NCBI GenBank assembly: GCA_963784355.1
Contig: CAWAQU010000004.1
Location: forward strand, 1-19,453
Reading direction: 5' to 3'
DNA length: 19,453 bases
Origin: an uncultured bacterium
GTDB taxonomy: Bacteria; Patescibacteriota; JACMRA01
In this document: piece by piece, positions 6,928 through 12,116 of the stretch
Layout of the letters: each line of letters starts with the position of its first letter
Numbering within the stretch: position 1 is the first letter of the stretch
The notes under the pieces: generated by a model
The model's database searches: none
What the model saw: the letters and a program-made list of their open reading frames with translations, nothing else
What the model was told of the DNA's origin: nothing
Made by a program: the position numbers and the translations under genes

Positions 6928-7455
6928 TTAATTTTTATACTCTGTATAATTATTTAAATGACTTTCTACTTCTTTTATAGCTTCAGCTTTTCCAAAAACT
7001 CCTTCAACAGTGCACACCTTATTTTGTAGCCTCTTATAGTTTGCAAAAAAATCTGTCATCTCTTTGATTCTATGTTCAGGTATGCTACTAACATCTTCAA
7101 TTTCAGCAAATCTTGGGTCGGCCAGTGGAACTGCTATAATACAATTGTCTTGGTCACCACTATCAATTTTTTTGATTATCCCGATTGCCCTACACTTAAT
7201 TACTGTAGTAGGTGGTACAGGATTCGTGAGAAGTACTGCTACATCCAATGCATCTCCGTCAGCCGCTTTGGTAGATGGTATAAAACCGTAATTGAAAGGG
7301 TAAAATTCAGAAGAATACAAAACTCTATCTAAAAAAAGTGCTCCGGTTTCAGAATCTAATTCGTATTTGTTTTGGCTACCGTATGGAATTTCAATAACCA
7401 CATTGAACTTATCAACTTCGCCGGATGGTAAAAAATATAAATTTTGTGAATTCAT
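6928..7455 (-). CDS. ppa: Family I inorganic pyrophosphatase
   Basis: VIEIP.GS.NKYE, LDRVL, YPFNYGFIP.T, DGDALDV and FF.NYK motifs. Confidence 0.95.
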   Translation of the reverse strand: MNSQNLYFLPSGEVDKFNVVIEIPYGSQNKYELDSETGALFLDRVLYSSEFYPFNYGFIPSTKAADGDALDVAVLLTNPVPPTTVIKCRAIGIIKKIDSGDQDNCIIAVPLADPRFAEIEDVSSIPEHRIKEMTDFFANYKRLQNKVCTVEGVFGKAEAIKEVESHLNNYTEYKN

Positions 7456-7480
7456 ATCAAAATAGTTAACTTAACCCTAA

Positions 7481-7508
7481 AAGTTACAGCTTACAACAAA
7501 AATGTCAA
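7481..7508 (-). promoter_or_regulatory. Putative sigma70 promoter for ppa-secG-SBP
   Basis: TTGACA (7508-7503), 16 nt, TAACTT (7486-7481). Confidence 0.45.
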
Positions 7509-7528
7509 GCTACAAGCAGCATAAAAAT

Positions 7529-7557
7529 TTGACATATTTATTCTTGAAGAGTAATAT
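7529..7557 (+). promoter_or_regulatory. Sigma70 promoter for the serS leader
   Basis: TTGACA (7529-7534), 17 nt, TAATAT (7552-7557); predicted +1 about 7564. Confidence 0.7.
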
Positions 7558-7563
7558 TAAAGC

Positions 7564-7602
7564 ATGTTTCAAGTGCACTTCATTACCTCAATTATTTTAT
7601 AA
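7564..7602 (+). CDS. Putative leaderless leader peptide MFQVHFITSIIL
   Basis: ATG coincides with the predicted transcription start; 12 codons with one Ser codon (TCA 7588-7590); TAA at 7600-7602. Confidence 0.45.
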   Translation: MFQVHFITSIIL

Positions 7603-7609
7603 TTCTATA

Positions 7610-7664
7610 GGGAGTTGCTAGTGTAGTTTGATTATTTTTACTCCCGGATGGGGGAATTTTTATT
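7610..7664 (+). terminator. Putative attenuator: antiterminator versus intrinsic terminator upstream of serS
   Basis: GGGAGT (7610-7615) pairs with ACTCCC (7640-7645); alternatively CTCCC-GGAT-GGGGG (7641-7654) forms a hairpin followed by AATTTTTATT. Confidence 0.55.
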
Positions 7665-7681
7665 AAAAAAATCTTATTAAT

Positions 7682-8941
7682 ATGATCTCAATTCAACATT
7701 TGGTAGAAAATACAAGTTTGTATACTAAAGAGCTGCAAAAACGCTTTATGGATGAAACTTTAGCTGAAAAAGCTAAGCAGGCTTATTTAGATTGGAAAAA
7801 TAAACAGCATGAGTTGGAAGCTTTTAGGCAACAGAAAAATGAGTTTAATACAATTATTTTAAATTTAAGCAATGAAGAGAAAACATCAAAAATCCTCGAA
7901 ATGAAGGTAATTGCAGAGCAGATTAAGGCAATTGAGAGTGAGGCTAAAGAATTAAAAGAAGCACTAGATAATCTAATTGCTAGGATTCCGAATTTGACTT
8001 GGGAGGGTATGCCTATAGGTAAAGACAGTGATGCAAATGTCGAGAAAGCCGTATATGGCCAAAAACCAAATTTTACTTTTACTCCAAAAAATTACTATGA
8101 GTTACCTATTTTTCAAAGAGATTTTTTAAGTGAAAAAGGAGTTGCTGCTTCAGGTTTTAGAGGTTATTTTGTAACAGGAGAGTTGGCCAAATTTCAAAGA
8201 GTTTTATTTAATTGGGTTTTAGATAGGTTGATTCAAGATAATTTCGAGTATGTTATTCCACCAATAGCCGTAAATGAAGAACTGATGAAAGGTACAGGTT
8301 TTTTTCCTACTGGTAGAGATGATGTCTATGAAATTACAGATGGTAAGGAAGTAAAATTTATTCCCGGTACTAGCGAACCTCAATTGATGTTTAGATACTC
8401 AAATGAAGTGTTGGATTTAACAAAACCAAAGAAACTTACTGCCTGGACTACTTGCTTTAGAAAAGAAGTTGGTAGCTATGGGAAAGATGTTAAAGGTGGT
8501 ATTAGAGTGCATCAATTCGAAAAAGTCGAGACTGTTTTTATTTGCAAACCCGAGGACACATACAAAGTTTTTGAAGAAATGACAGGAATTTTTCACAATA
8601 CTCTAGATCAACTCGGTCTCTTCTATCATGATCTGGAGACTTCAACCGGAGATAATTCTTTAAAAAATCATCGCATGATTGATATTGAAGCTTGGTTTCC
8701 GGCTCAAGAAAAATTTAGAGAACTTAGTAGTAGCTCTATTTGTACTGATTATCAGACACGCAACTTAAATATTAAATACAAACAGGCCGATGGTACTGTA
8801 GAATTAGCTCATTCTTTGAATTGCACGGGGATTACTAATCGTACCATGTTTGCCATTATGGAGCAGTTTCAACAAGAAGACGGAAGTGTGAAGGTACCTA
8901 AAGTTTTAGTAGAGAGATTTGGAAAAGAGTTTTTAAGTTAA
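7682..8941 (+). CDS. serS: Serine--tRNA ligase
   Basis: N-terminal coiled coil, IPN, GTSE, CFRKEVGSYGKD..G.IRVHQFEKVE, DIEAWFP, ELSS.S.CTDYQ.R and HSLN motifs. Confidence 0.97.
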   Translation: MISIQHLVENTSLYTKELQKRFMDETLAEKAKQAYLDWKNKQHELEAFRQQKNEFNTIILNLSNEEKTSKILEMKVIAEQIKAIESEAKELKEALDNLIARIPNLTWEGMPIGKDSDANVEKAVYGQKPNFTFTPKNYYELPIFQRDFLSEKGVAASGFRGYFVTGELAKFQRVLFNWVLDRLIQDNFEYVIPPIAVNEELMKGTGFFPTGRDDVYEITDGKEVKFIPGTSEPQLMFRYSNEVLDLTKPKKLTAWTTCFRKEVGSYGKDVKGGIRVHQFEKVETVFICKPEDTYKVFEEMTGIFHNTLDQLGLFYHDLETSTGDNSLKNHRMIDIEAWFPAQEKFRELSSSSICTDYQTRNLNIKYKQADGTVELAHSLNCTGITNRTMFAIMEQFQQEDGSVKVPKVLVERFGKEFLS

Positions 8942-10301: not shown

Positions 10302-12116
10302 ATGTCTGAAGCTCCGGGTAATAAGAAAGAAAAAAGATTGGATTGGATCATTAAACAATACCCAAACTACAAGTCTTGGCAAAAAATACATAAAAATTAT
10401 AATGCTGAAGGGCAAGAATATATTGTTCCTAAAATTGAGATATTAGTTGAAAATGAGTTTAGCAAATATGCAGCTGCCAATAACCTAACAATACCAAAAT
10501 TGAATGTTCTACTCAAAAAAACATACCATTCTATAATTAACGATCCCTACGGTGAAAATTCTATAGACCTAGGCAAAGAGGCGGCAAAAGCCCGTTACCC
10601 TGTAAAAGCTGACAGAACCCTATTTCAACGCAATCCGTCTCAATTTAGATTAGTTCATCGAGCGGAACAGGAAATTGAAGCTCATCTCGGTGGTCTGCCT
10701 ATTGCTGTTAAAATAACGGCTTTGGAACCAGAAAGCTATTACGCATCTCTTGATGGCAATAAACCAGCAGTTGGTAAAAATGCTTTACTTACATTTCAAA
10801 ATATGCTCATATGGAATGAAAAATTGCCTCTCTTTGTTCCAGAAAAATATAAAAATTTGCTTAGAGCGAATAAAATGTATGCAGCGGTGTCTTTTTGGGA
10901 TGAAGAAAGCGAAAAGTATATCCAAATGCTAATAATGGAAAGGCTTACCAACCCTACCGCGATTCAAATGGATCACAATGATGAGCCAGATCAAAGTTTT
11001 TTGGATGCAATCATTGATAAAAACGGGAATCTAATCAACAAGTCGACTTATAGCCAAAACACTTATAAAGATAAATTAAACCCTCAATATCAGCCTGAAT
11101 TAATTGAGATTTTTAAAGGCAAGACAAAAATGATTGAAATAGCTAGGGAATTAAAAGGAAAATATGGTATTCCTGCTACTGATTTGCATGGTGGCAATAT
11201 TCTTATGGTTCCAAGTAACAGCTCCTGGGGATATTCATATGTTATTATTGATCAAGAGCCGATTGCACTCAATTTTGATTATTCAATTGAACATTCTGTG
11301 TTGGCTGATTTAAATAAATATATAAAAGATTTCAAAAATGGCTTGGTAGTATATTGTTTAAATTTGAACATACAAGATCATTTTAACAAAGCTATTATGA
11401 ATGAACATGGGGAATTTCACCTAGATGAAACACAGCAATTTCAGCATTTTGGACATGAATCTTTTGATATTCCGGCAATTACTATGCAAAATTTAACTTG
11501 GAAATTATCTAATAAAAATAATCTAGTAGCAAAAATTAAACCAAATTCTTTGGTTGGGATTATGATTGGTATGCCATTAAATATGGAGCTAAATAGTTTT
11601 AAGCAAAAATATTTTGAAAGTATAAACCCTAACGAAGATGAAAAAAATTATTTTTTAAGTGATATTATTTATGATAATCTAATTGAGAACTATCCAGAAT
11701 TATCAGACTTTGAAACTGAAGATTTACATAACAAACTTCATCAAATTTATACTCTACATTCATCTTTGTTAAAAATCATTCAAGCTAAGTGGGATTTAAA
11801 TCAGAATTTGATTCAACAATTAAATAGTTCGATTGAAATTGCCGGTTTTTGGTTATCAAATAAACACATTAATGCACTCGCACCCGCACTAAGAGATAAA
11901 ATAATTTTAAAGGAATCAAATCTTTCAGATACAGTTGAACTAGGCCTGAACACATATTATCATAAAAAAGCTTTGTGGATTTATCCTCATTTTGATCAAC
12001 TAGTTAAAAAGTTGCAAGAAGACCAAGAAGTCAATAATATTGTGGAACAATTAATTAAAGTAATTGCGTCAATTCCTAGTCAATTCCTTACTAGACACCA
12101 AAGCATGGAAGAATAA
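10302..12116 (+). CDS. Hypothetical protein with divergent protein-kinase-like domain and unknown C-terminal region
   Basis: IAVKI, LIMERL, TDLHGGNILM and VIIDQE in kinase order; ATG10302 preferred over TTG10287 as start. Confidence 0.65.
   Translation: MSEAPGNKKEKRLDWIIKQYPNYKSWQKIHKNYNAEGQEYIVPKIEILVENEFSKYAAANNLTIPKLNVLLKKTYHSIINDPYGENSIDLGKEAAKARYPVKADRTLFQRNPSQFRLVHRAEQEIEAHLGGLPIAVKITALEPESYYASLDGNKPAVGKNALLTFQNMLIWNEKLPLFVPEKYKNLLRANKMYAAVSFWDEESEKYIQMLIMERLTNPTAIQMDHNDEPDQSFLDAIIDKNGNLINKSTYSQNTYKDKLNPQYQPELIEIFKGKTKMIEIARELKGKYGIPATDLHGGNILMVPSNSSWGYSYVIIDQEPIALNFDYSIEHSVLADLNKYIKDFKNGLVVYCLNLNIQDHFNKAIMNEHGEFHLDETQQFQHFGHESFDIPAITMQNLTWKLSNKNNLVAKIKPNSLVGIMIGMPLNMELNSFKQKYFESINPNEDEKNYFLSDIIYDNLIENYPELSDFETEDLHNKLHQIYTLHSSLLKIIQAKWDLNQNLIQQLNSSIEIAGFWLSNKHINALAPALRDKIILKESNLSDTVELGLNTYYHKKALWIYPHFDQLVKKLQEDQEVNNIVEQLIKVIASIPSQFLTRHQSMEE

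Follow-up and report, generated by a model that had tools for sequence, protein, structure and literature searches.

What does the 118-nucleotide (nt) leader of the seryl-tRNA synthetase gene (serS) do in an uncultured bacterium of the Patescibacteria, and does it respond to serine? To our knowledge, almost nothing is known about gene regulation in the bacteria of the candidate phyla radiation, most of which cannot be grown, and we approached the question in silico. The window that we analyzed is the entire 19,453-nt contig CAWAQU010000004.1 of assembly GCA_963784355.1, a metagenome-assembled genome of 1.14 Mb with 33.6% G+C and a completeness of 81% (the source genome; G000). A reading of this DNA from its letters, referred to here as the original prediction, had proposed that a leaderless short open reading frame (ORF) and competing hairpins form an attenuator through which serS senses the charging of tRNA(Ser). 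Our analysis of the source genome and of its relatives suggests that the serS leader is probably a ribosome-dependent (leader-peptide) transcription attenuator and one copy of a recurring cassette. The predicted architecture held up and recurs at thrS, lysS and proS, and the sister leaders support the logic of ribosome position; the proposed serine specificity and the conservation among serS leaders were not supported. The elements of the leader and the gene behind it are as follows (window coordinates).

7529-7557, plus strand: promoter of the serS leader, TTGACA / 17 nt / TAATAT, from sequence reading and motif scan
7564-7602, plus strand: leaderless 12-codon ORF MFQVHFITSIIL with its stop codon TAA at 7600-7602 and a predicted transcription start at A7564
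7610-7615, plus strand: patch S1, GGGAGT, 5' half of the putative antiterminator, 7 nt past the ORF stop
7640-7645, plus strand: patch S2, ACTCCC, possible partner of S1 (antiterminator) or of S3 (terminator), from sequence reading and folding
7650-7664, plus strand: patch S3, GGGGG (7650-7654), the 3' arm of a putative, weak intrinsic terminator whose T tract TTTTTATT (7657-7664) comes after AA
7682-8941, plus strand: serS, seryl-tRNA synthetase of 419 amino acids (Pfam Seryl_tRNA_N and tRNA-synt_2b, profile match from residue 1)

These elements agree with the original prediction. TTGACA (7529-7534) and TAATAT (7552-7557) are separated by a 17-nt spacer, the A of the ATG at 7564-7566 is the 7th base after the -10 hexamer (TAATAT, 6 nt, ATG), and the ORF (ATG TTT CAA GTG CAC TTC ATT ACC TCA ATT ATT TTA TAA) has TCA at 7588-7590 as its sole Ser codon; the three G/C patches are present as well and are followed by AATTTTTATT. 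A motif scan also reports the promoter (10/12 matches) and a terminator-like hairpin consisting of CTCCCGGATGGGGG and AATTTTTATT, which at 7641-7664 places an intrinsic terminator between the ORF and serS. With no more than 17 nt from the T tract to the serS ATG, there is no space for a separate promoter. ACTCCC had been predicted to pair with either of its neighbors, and we found both pairings to be energetically feasible: the terminator has a folding energy of -7.2 kcal/mol (-6.1 kcal/mol for the bare hairpin), and the GGGAGU:ACUCCC helix has 6 pairs and -8.2 kcal/mol. In its extended form, this helix is the minimum-energy fold of 7603-7666 (-12.9 kcal/mol). Because naked RNA favors the antiterminator, the default in the absence of translation should be read-through. 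In the predicted fold of 7564-7690, all bases past 7654, including the serS start, are unpaired.

Other coding possibilities in this region were considered. A mini-ORF (MGEFLLKKSY; 7648-7680, plus strand) has its ATG in the terminator loop and a TAA that ends 1 nt before the serS ATG, and, with the hairpin open, translation of serS might be coupled to it. A 39-codon ORF that begins with ATG at 7502, ends in NSIGSC directly before its stop and contains 6 Ser was rejected, because its start lies upstream of the promoter and its frame has no ATG, GTG or TTG after 7564. We also considered that the leader ORF might be left over from the N-terminus of serS (MFQVHFITS compared to MISIQHLVENTS) and dropped this as unsupported once the homology to Thr-type leaders described below appeared.

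The original prediction had proposed to inspect other aminoacyl-tRNA synthetase (aaRS) genes for the same layout with cognate codons. We located 15 aaRS genes in the source genome, and 4 of them carry the layout (thrS, lysS, proS and serS); in the first three, identified as such by NCBIfam, the leader ORFs contain cognate codons.

thrS leader, contig C3 64670-64516, minus strand (locus L033:2987-3141): TTGACT-17-TATAAT, 10 nt, ATG; ORF MNSLQTTTTTTNPLKG ending within GGGGTAG; ACTCCC-AATCCA-GGGAG and ATTTTTTATTTT follow, about 50 nt upstream of thrS
lysS leader: TTGACA-17-TATAAT, 7 nt, ATG; ORF MKLVVFSKKNSKKTSQ; then AAGGGGGCTC, GCTCCCT-TCC-AGGGAGT and TTGTTTTTT, about 30 nt before the lysS ATG
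proS leader: TTGACA-18-TATAAT, 9 nt, ATG; ORF MKYSNLNSVNFPPR; then two hairpins with T tracts

These three ORFs comprise 14-16 codons and are leaderless or near-leaderless. When residue enrichment was computed against intergenic codon frequencies, Thr (6/15, P=6.7e-5) and Lys (5/15, P=0.006) were the most enriched residues of the thrS and lysS ORFs, respectively, and Pro, present as Pro-Pro (2/13), was the second most enriched residue of the proS ORF, a borderline case (P=0.06). With its six consecutive Thr codons, the thrS leader is the clearest candidate attenuator of the source genome. An attenuator-like layout was not seen at glyS, valS, ileS, leuS, metG, aspS, tyrS, gltX, pheS, alaS and cysS, and no argS, hisS or trpS turned up in the source genome, which is 81% complete.

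The layout is not confined to aaRS genes. A screen for intergenic terminator-like hairpins with an upstream patch complementary to their 5' arm returned the serS and lysS leaders and five further ones, each of which combines a TTGACA box with a short ORF that ends at the patch; these five lie before a peptidase C26 gene, an AstE/AspA-like gene, the genes for a 422-amino-acid and a 633-amino-acid protein of unknown family, and a small ORF. The promoter/short-ORF/three-patch layout is present in at least nine copies in the source genome. All nine leaders start with TTGACA or TTGACT. In every copy, the short ORF has a stop codon that overlaps the first G-rich patch or is only a few bases away from it; for the thrS, lysS, peptidase-C26 and AstE-like leaders, and for those of relatives, the patch is at or adjoins the stop. 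The main ORF begins 13-50 nt past the terminator in at least seven of the nine leaders and is thus reachable only by read-through. The C26 and serS leaders have TTAAAGCATGTT in common. In the AstE-like leader, the patches read GGGGA / TCCCC / GGGGA, which means that all three have changed together. The genes for the peptidase C26 and the AstE/AspA-like deacylase are adjacent and have separate attenuator-like leaders (C3 118345-117271, minus strand, locus L134), whose ORFs begin with MLN... and contain Cys.

Relatives of the source genome, which bear the taxon labels Patescibacteria or Paceibacterota, contain the cassette as well. Counts across them are not independent because of shared ancestry, and the motif classes were defined after the cases had been seen. 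With these limits, the pattern GGGRG-N20-50-CTCCC-N3-8-GGGRG gave 37 matches in 26 genomes of the family compared to 6 for the reversed control, with 5 matches in the source genome. When NTTTTT was added, 25 matches were obtained in 18 of 301 genomes of the phylum compared to 1 for the control; the extended pattern occurred in 5 of the 15 other family members sampled and in 12 of 285 genomes outside the family. The leaders found in relatives are listed here by downstream gene.

thrS, G022: short ORF MQIFVTTTTTAQIRE
thrS, G018: short ORF MQIFVITTTTTQIRE
thrS, G016: Thr-run ORF
leuS, G055: ORF with ...PLTLLLWSL
trpA, G010 (L179, C76 about 10960-11120): ORF with ...FSWWQ...
PALP (cysteine-synthase-like) enzyme, G016 (L176, C1 about 68830-69000): nine-Cys ORF MQNCDFCDCSCCCCGNEGGCGCTKS
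Cys/Met pyridoxal-phosphate enzyme, G016: ORF with ...SMMSMM...
Cys/Met pyridoxal-phosphate enzyme, G299: ORF with ...NCCAILP
thiamine-pyrophosphate enzyme, G118: MEMHRSSIVAIVVVTSL, including IVAIVVV
peptidase C26, G152 (a distant genome): no run noted

The nine-Cys leader of G016 and the WW leader of G010 possess the same three-patch terminator switch. Read from sequence, the cognate runs in the leaders of these relatives look like the signatures of classical leader-peptide attenuation. In G018, a PemK/MazF-like toxin ORF (144 amino acids) is located between the Thr-run attenuator and thrS (L157, C1 about 386700-387750), so that the leader is about 530 nt away from thrS; this looks like an insertion into the leader.

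Comparison with these relatives also bears on the ancestry of the serS copy. Aligned with the Thr-type leaders, the serS leader matches them at GGGAGT(A/T)G, at ACTCCC, which is invariant, and at the T tract, and the frame of its ORF reads the first patch as AGG GAG, which is the frame of the ...RE-stop endings found in the family. Where the Thr-type leaders have GGGAGTAG with the ORF stop, the serS leader has GGGAGTTG: TAG is replaced by TTG, and the serS ORF ends with a TAA three codons earlier. At the other end of the ORF, its start ATGTTTCAAG and ATTACC resemble the Thr-run ORF of G008 (GTGTTTCAAG...ATTACC), minus the Thr run.

Two further properties of this lineage narrow the choice of mechanisms. 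Consistent with the original prediction, which had seen no T-box, the window has no Rfam match at the gathering score, and a search of 7400-7750 at E values of up to 10 returned nothing except two unrelated weak matches. The T-box (RF00230) was found in none of the 26 family genomes, with a control search that was positive in 5 of 14 reference genomes. Shine-Dalgarno motifs (GGAG, GAGG or AGGA at positions -20 to -4) precede 32 of 797 ATG-start genes compared to 52 of 797 in a control window further upstream; they are evidently not used, and the GGGAG patches are consequently not ribosome-binding sites. The 3' end of the 16S rRNA, sought for its anti-Shine-Dalgarno sequence, was not found in the source genome with the pattern used.

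With genes called by an ORF-based procedure of our own (1001 genes), promoter-like sites of the form TTGAC.-N16-18-TA...T are 7.5 times denser in intergenic than in coding DNA (0.527 compared to 0.070 per kb and strand), and ATG is enriched 6-9 nt past their -10 boxes throughout the genome. An ATG or GTG lies 5-9 nt past such a box in 40 cases, and 28 of these starts open ORFs of at least 50 codons, which indicates that leaderless mRNAs are common in the source genome; about one-sixth of the strong promoter-like sites lie 5-9 nt before the start codon of a long ORF. The remaining 12 starts open short ORFs, and three of these precede aaRS genes (serS, proS and lysS). Intrinsic terminators are in use, with 141 terminator-like hairpins at gene 3' ends (median, -9.1 kcal/mol). 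An excess of terminator-like hairpins in divergent spacers (26 compared to 10.3 +/- 3.1) was set aside since it largely consists of tRNA arms and uncalled small genes. Given the cognate codons in the sister leaders and in those of relatives, the lack of T-boxes and the near absence of Shine-Dalgarno motifs, ribosome-dependent attenuation is the most likely function of the serS leader.

Such an attenuator would work as follows. RNA polymerase would start at or next to A7564, and the 5'-terminal AUG of the transcript would be translated in a leaderless fashion. A ribosome that has finished the 12 codons up to the UAA at 7600-7602 would cover the first bases of GGGAGU (7610-7615) with its front edge; ACUCCC (7640-7645) would then be left to pair with GGGGG (7650-7654), and transcription would terminate in the U tract, 17 nt before serS. 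If the ribosome lags behind, stalls within the ORF or has not been loaded, GGGAGU would pair with ACUCCC, and the polymerase would read into serS. The start site, the translation of the ORF, termination at the hairpin and the direction of the switch are what we infer from this arrangement.

A number of observations weigh against this interpretation, and several of them concern serS in relatives, where its surroundings have to be considered. Upstream of serS lies a divergently transcribed gene, separated from it by a 226-nt spacer.

6928-7455, minus strand, start at 7455: ppa (Pfam Pyrophosphatase)
7481-7508, minus strand: likely ppa promoter, TTGACA (7508-7503), 16 nt, TAACTT (7486-7481), from sequence reading

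The -35 box of ppa is a perfect TTGACA and stands back to back with that of serS; a blastn-short search found no other copy of the spacer in the source genome. The family comprises 25 other species, and the nearest seryl-tRNA synthetase is 65% identical. Scans for close relatives yielded 2 loci in metagenomes (38% and 49% identity) and 5 loci in a genome collection (34-60% identity). None of 24 relatives' serS loci has the leader, and the promoter-hairpin-serS arrangement was seen in none of them. The upstream gene varies among these loci, and 9 have 52 nt or less before serS. A terminator-like hairpin lies upstream of serS in three (L007, L022 and L017); those at L007 and L022 are read as terminators of a co-directional upstream gene, and the one at L017 is located 67 nt before serS in a 396-nt spacer. 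In a genome of the same genus, the ppa/serS synteny is kept with an 84-nt spacer that has neither a short ORF nor a hairpin; both -35 boxes are kept, in the TGTCAAG...TTGACATA arrangement of divergent promoters, and serS follows directly after a TATAAT box. Conservation of the ORF and of the pairings is thus found among the paralogous leaders within the source genome and not among the orthologous ones. The lysS and proS versions were likewise not seen in 18 and 21 other family genomes examined, respectively, from which we conclude that individual cassettes are short-lived and turn over quickly.

Further points on the same side come from the leader itself and from statistics. By itself, the serS leader is unremarkable: its folding energy has a z of +0.36, with 125 of 200 shuffled sequences folding at least as well, and in the window motif rates are at chance level (79 promoter-like sites compared to 75.9 +/- 10 in shuffles, and 8 terminator-like sites compared to 10.8 +/- 3.6). 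Its terminator is the weakest of the nine leaders and weaker than the median at gene 3' ends: the stem, whose shortness the original prediction had named as a weakness, consists of five pairs, one of them G-U, and AA precedes the T tract; the hairpins of four other leaders, the thrS leader among them, are similarly weak (-6.6 to -7.3 kcal/mol). The ORF stop lies 7 nt before the first patch, further away than in the other copies. A ribosome footprint reaches about 13 nt from the A-site codon, and a ribosome at the serS ORF stop would accordingly cover only 3 of the 6 bases of GGGAGU. With respect to the genome as a whole, counts rest on a crude gene call, and a generic test for upstream patches among 195 hairpins was not significant (8 compared to 5.9 +/- 1.9 in shuffles, with 5 in a downstream control). 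For the 11 intergenic hairpins of the type CTCCC-loop-GGGRG followed by a T tract, GGGRG was found 20-50 nt upstream in 5 cases, the serS leader among them, compared to 0.24 expected (downstream, 0 of 11), a contrast that overstates the case since this hairpin class was chosen after examples had been seen; even so, the two or three copies that the screen alone brought up would not be expected.

Whether the serS copy senses serine is a separate matter. The original prediction had itself cautioned that the ORF holds one Ser codon only; this corresponds to 1 Ser in 11 codons (P=0.61), with Ile as the most enriched residue, which does not support serine sensing by this copy. That the attenuator senses the charging of tRNA(Ser) via the single UCA at 7588-7590, where stalling would free GGGAGU and allow read-through, strikes us as possible but doubtful. 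The geometry is suitable, as UCA lies 22 nt before the first patch and a ribosome held there would leave the patch free; by our own count, this distance is 13-19 nt for the last cognate codon of the thrS, lysS and Met-type leaders. Cognate codons are used in the sister leaders, and in the passages of PMC8079986 considered here, one or two regulatory codons can be enough for a Streptomyces leader peptide to be accepted. However, the Ser content is at chance level, and the ORF has more Ile (3) and Phe (2) than Ser, so that a ribosome stalled at any of these codons would produce the same outcome. TCA is nothing special among the Ser codons of this genome (22.6% of them), and no orthologous leader was found in which conservation of the codon could be checked. 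The serS copy may report Ser-tRNA weakly, or elongation in general, or it may be a weakened descendant of a Thr-type leader. A decayed or idle Thr-type cassette, in which the weak hairpin would stop few transcripts and the promoter at 7529 would drive constitutive serS expression via the 118-nt leader, appears rather unlikely to us. It would fit the weakness of the terminator, the replacement of GGGAGTAG by GGGAGTTG, the earlier TAA, the G008-like start without a Thr run and the fast turnover of cassettes; yet the promoter, all three patches and the T tract are still present, as is an unbroken ORF whose end is close enough to the first patch for a ribosome to reach it, and four other leaders, including that of thrS with its six Thr codons, have similarly weak hairpins.

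The promoter, the 12-codon ORF and the terminator might instead form a tiny gene or small RNA of their own, with the serS promoter located elsewhere. Stand-alone small genes do have this form, and a unit at C3 15530 (MKASTSGKLGVSFINF and a hairpin) faces a convergent gene and regulates nothing downstream. The 17 nt between the T tract and the serS ATG, the lack of good promoter hexamers with usable spacing past 7557 (the scan lists none on the plus strand of 7558-7681) and the tight spacing of terminator and gene in at least seven of nine leaders make a separate unit very improbable. We give still less credence to an ordinary AT-rich 5' untranslated region with an accidental ATG and three accidental G/C patches. 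The chance-level motif counts of the window, the ordinary fold and the lack of conservation at serS would suit it, as would the finding that there are 12 short ORFs 5-9 nt past promoter-like sites when about 20 are expected (an estimate from neighboring offsets); but 3 of these 12 precede aaRS genes, which make up about 15 of the 1001 called genes, the three-patch pattern was found 5 times where we estimate about 0.01 per genome from base composition, and sister leaders carry cognate runs.

Beyond the preferred reading of the serS leader as a ribosome-dependent attenuator, we tentatively propose a broader picture, which we consider plausible without regarding it as the likely outcome: minimal three-segment attenuators operate throughout this genome, the cassette is copied and re-coded between genes, and the serS leader is a recent Thr-type derivative. 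In a lineage without T-boxes and without initiation led by Shine-Dalgarno sequences, leaderless or near-leaderless short ORFs may drive these attenuators. The cassette may consist of TTGACA, TATAAT, often TAAAG, a short ORF, and GGGAG / CUCCC / GGGAG with a U tract, and it may have been re-coded for the local amino acid at no fewer than four aaRS genes of one 1.1-Mb genome. The serS copy may then report the general speed of elongation or a nascent-peptide stall rather than a codon run, and untranslated leaders may default to read-through, opposite to the enterobacterial default.

Several peculiarities of the contig and of the aaRS genes were seen alongside. Positions 1-1000 of the window have 51% G+C compared to 29-37% across the remaining contig, and may represent foreign DNA or a join at the contig end; a 5'-open ORF at 1-495 has only weak GNAT matches (E about 0.006). 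The first ~60 codons of lysS (MSQQAGISYSSVETQRQIRIEKMYKLEDLGQNPFTPYSKKR...) are out of frame with the rest, and the two frames join at an A run, which is either an assembly error or a real frameshift.

Contig C6 about 37954-37866, minus strand (locus L042): lysS frame change, from sequence reading

Several aaRS genes (loci L033, L036 and L038/L039) contain foreign domains. In the 978-amino-acid thrS product, GNAT/RimI-like acetyltransferase domains separate the catalytic core from a conserved N-terminal stretch of ~130 residues; valS has a HAM1/RdgB-like domain at its N terminus; and leuS is split into two ORFs, with Nudix hydrolase matches within the first.

If our interpretation is correct, a regulatory code could be read from sequence, in which a codon run identifies the amino acid that the gene behind it responds to. 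This would provide clues to the function of uncharacterized genes, such as those for the 422- and 633-amino-acid proteins or the DUF2000 gene that lies behind a Thr run in G008, and it would show how a lineage that has neither T-boxes nor Shine-Dalgarno initiation couples aaRS supply to translation. The gain for serS itself would be modest: one further aaRS gene under classical control, with an unusually uninformative leader peptide.

Classical leader-peptide attenuators are those of the trp, his, thr, leu and pheA operons of enterobacteria, with pheST as an example for an aaRS. The serS leader has in common with them a leader ORF, an intrinsic terminator before the gene, an antiterminator exclusive of it and a decision that would depend on the position of the ribosome. 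The sister leaders of thrS and lysS also share the runs of cognate codons, which the serS copy lacks. In contrast to the four segments of the enterobacterial attenuators, the serS cassette has three, and no 1:2 pause hairpin is evident; for this reason, its untranslated RNA should read through rather than terminate. In addition, no Shine-Dalgarno sequence precedes its ORF, which is leaderless or almost so. The usual control of serS in Firmicutes is the T-box riboswitch (Rfam RF00230), which likewise chooses between terminator and antiterminator in an aaRS leader and reports tRNA charging; unlike in the T-box, sensing in the serS leader would proceed via the translating ribosome and not via binding of a tRNA to the RNA.

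Further counterparts are found in Streptomyces and in mycobacteria. The original prediction had taken the device to be undescribed, a view that does not hold: for Streptomyces lividans TK24, the passages of PMC8079986 considered here report leaderless leader peptides ahead of alaS, thrS, trpS and leuS, and attenuators at trpS2 and leuS of Streptomyces are predicted in those of PMC1262725. As described there, aaRS genes are located behind hairpins and behind leaderless short ORFs that contain a few or several cognate codons, as they are here; Streptomyces is GC-rich and belongs to another phylum, whereas our leaders are AT-rich, and several Streptomyces cases lack a clear U tract according to their authors. 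The gene table passage of PMC8079986 does not name serS, lysS or proS. The mycobacterial 'Cys ribulon', as outlined in part of a preprint (bioRxiv 10.1101/834739), consists of leaderless polycysteine short ORFs that unmask a downstream ribosome-binding site and act on translation. It resembles our cassette in having leaderless sensory short ORFs at several loci per genome, and G016 has its nine-Cys ORF before a PALP enzyme. It differs in that a hairpin with a U tract forms the downstream element at serS, where the predicted fold leaves the start region of the gene unpaired; no duplex that would sequester this start, as in a translational attenuator of the mycobacterial type, was present in the fold of 7564-7690, and Shine-Dalgarno sites are not used. 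We found no description of transcription attenuation or of sensory leader peptides in Patescibacteria in a literature search that covered no subscription journals, and the sections of PMC12641178 consulted mention leaderless translation only in connection with YchF. While this kind of device is already known, what appears to be new, as far as this search shows, is its occurrence in the Patescibacteria, its form as a compact three-patch cassette with at least nine copies in a 1.1-Mb genome and a place on four aaRS genes, and the use of serS, lysS and proS as its targets.

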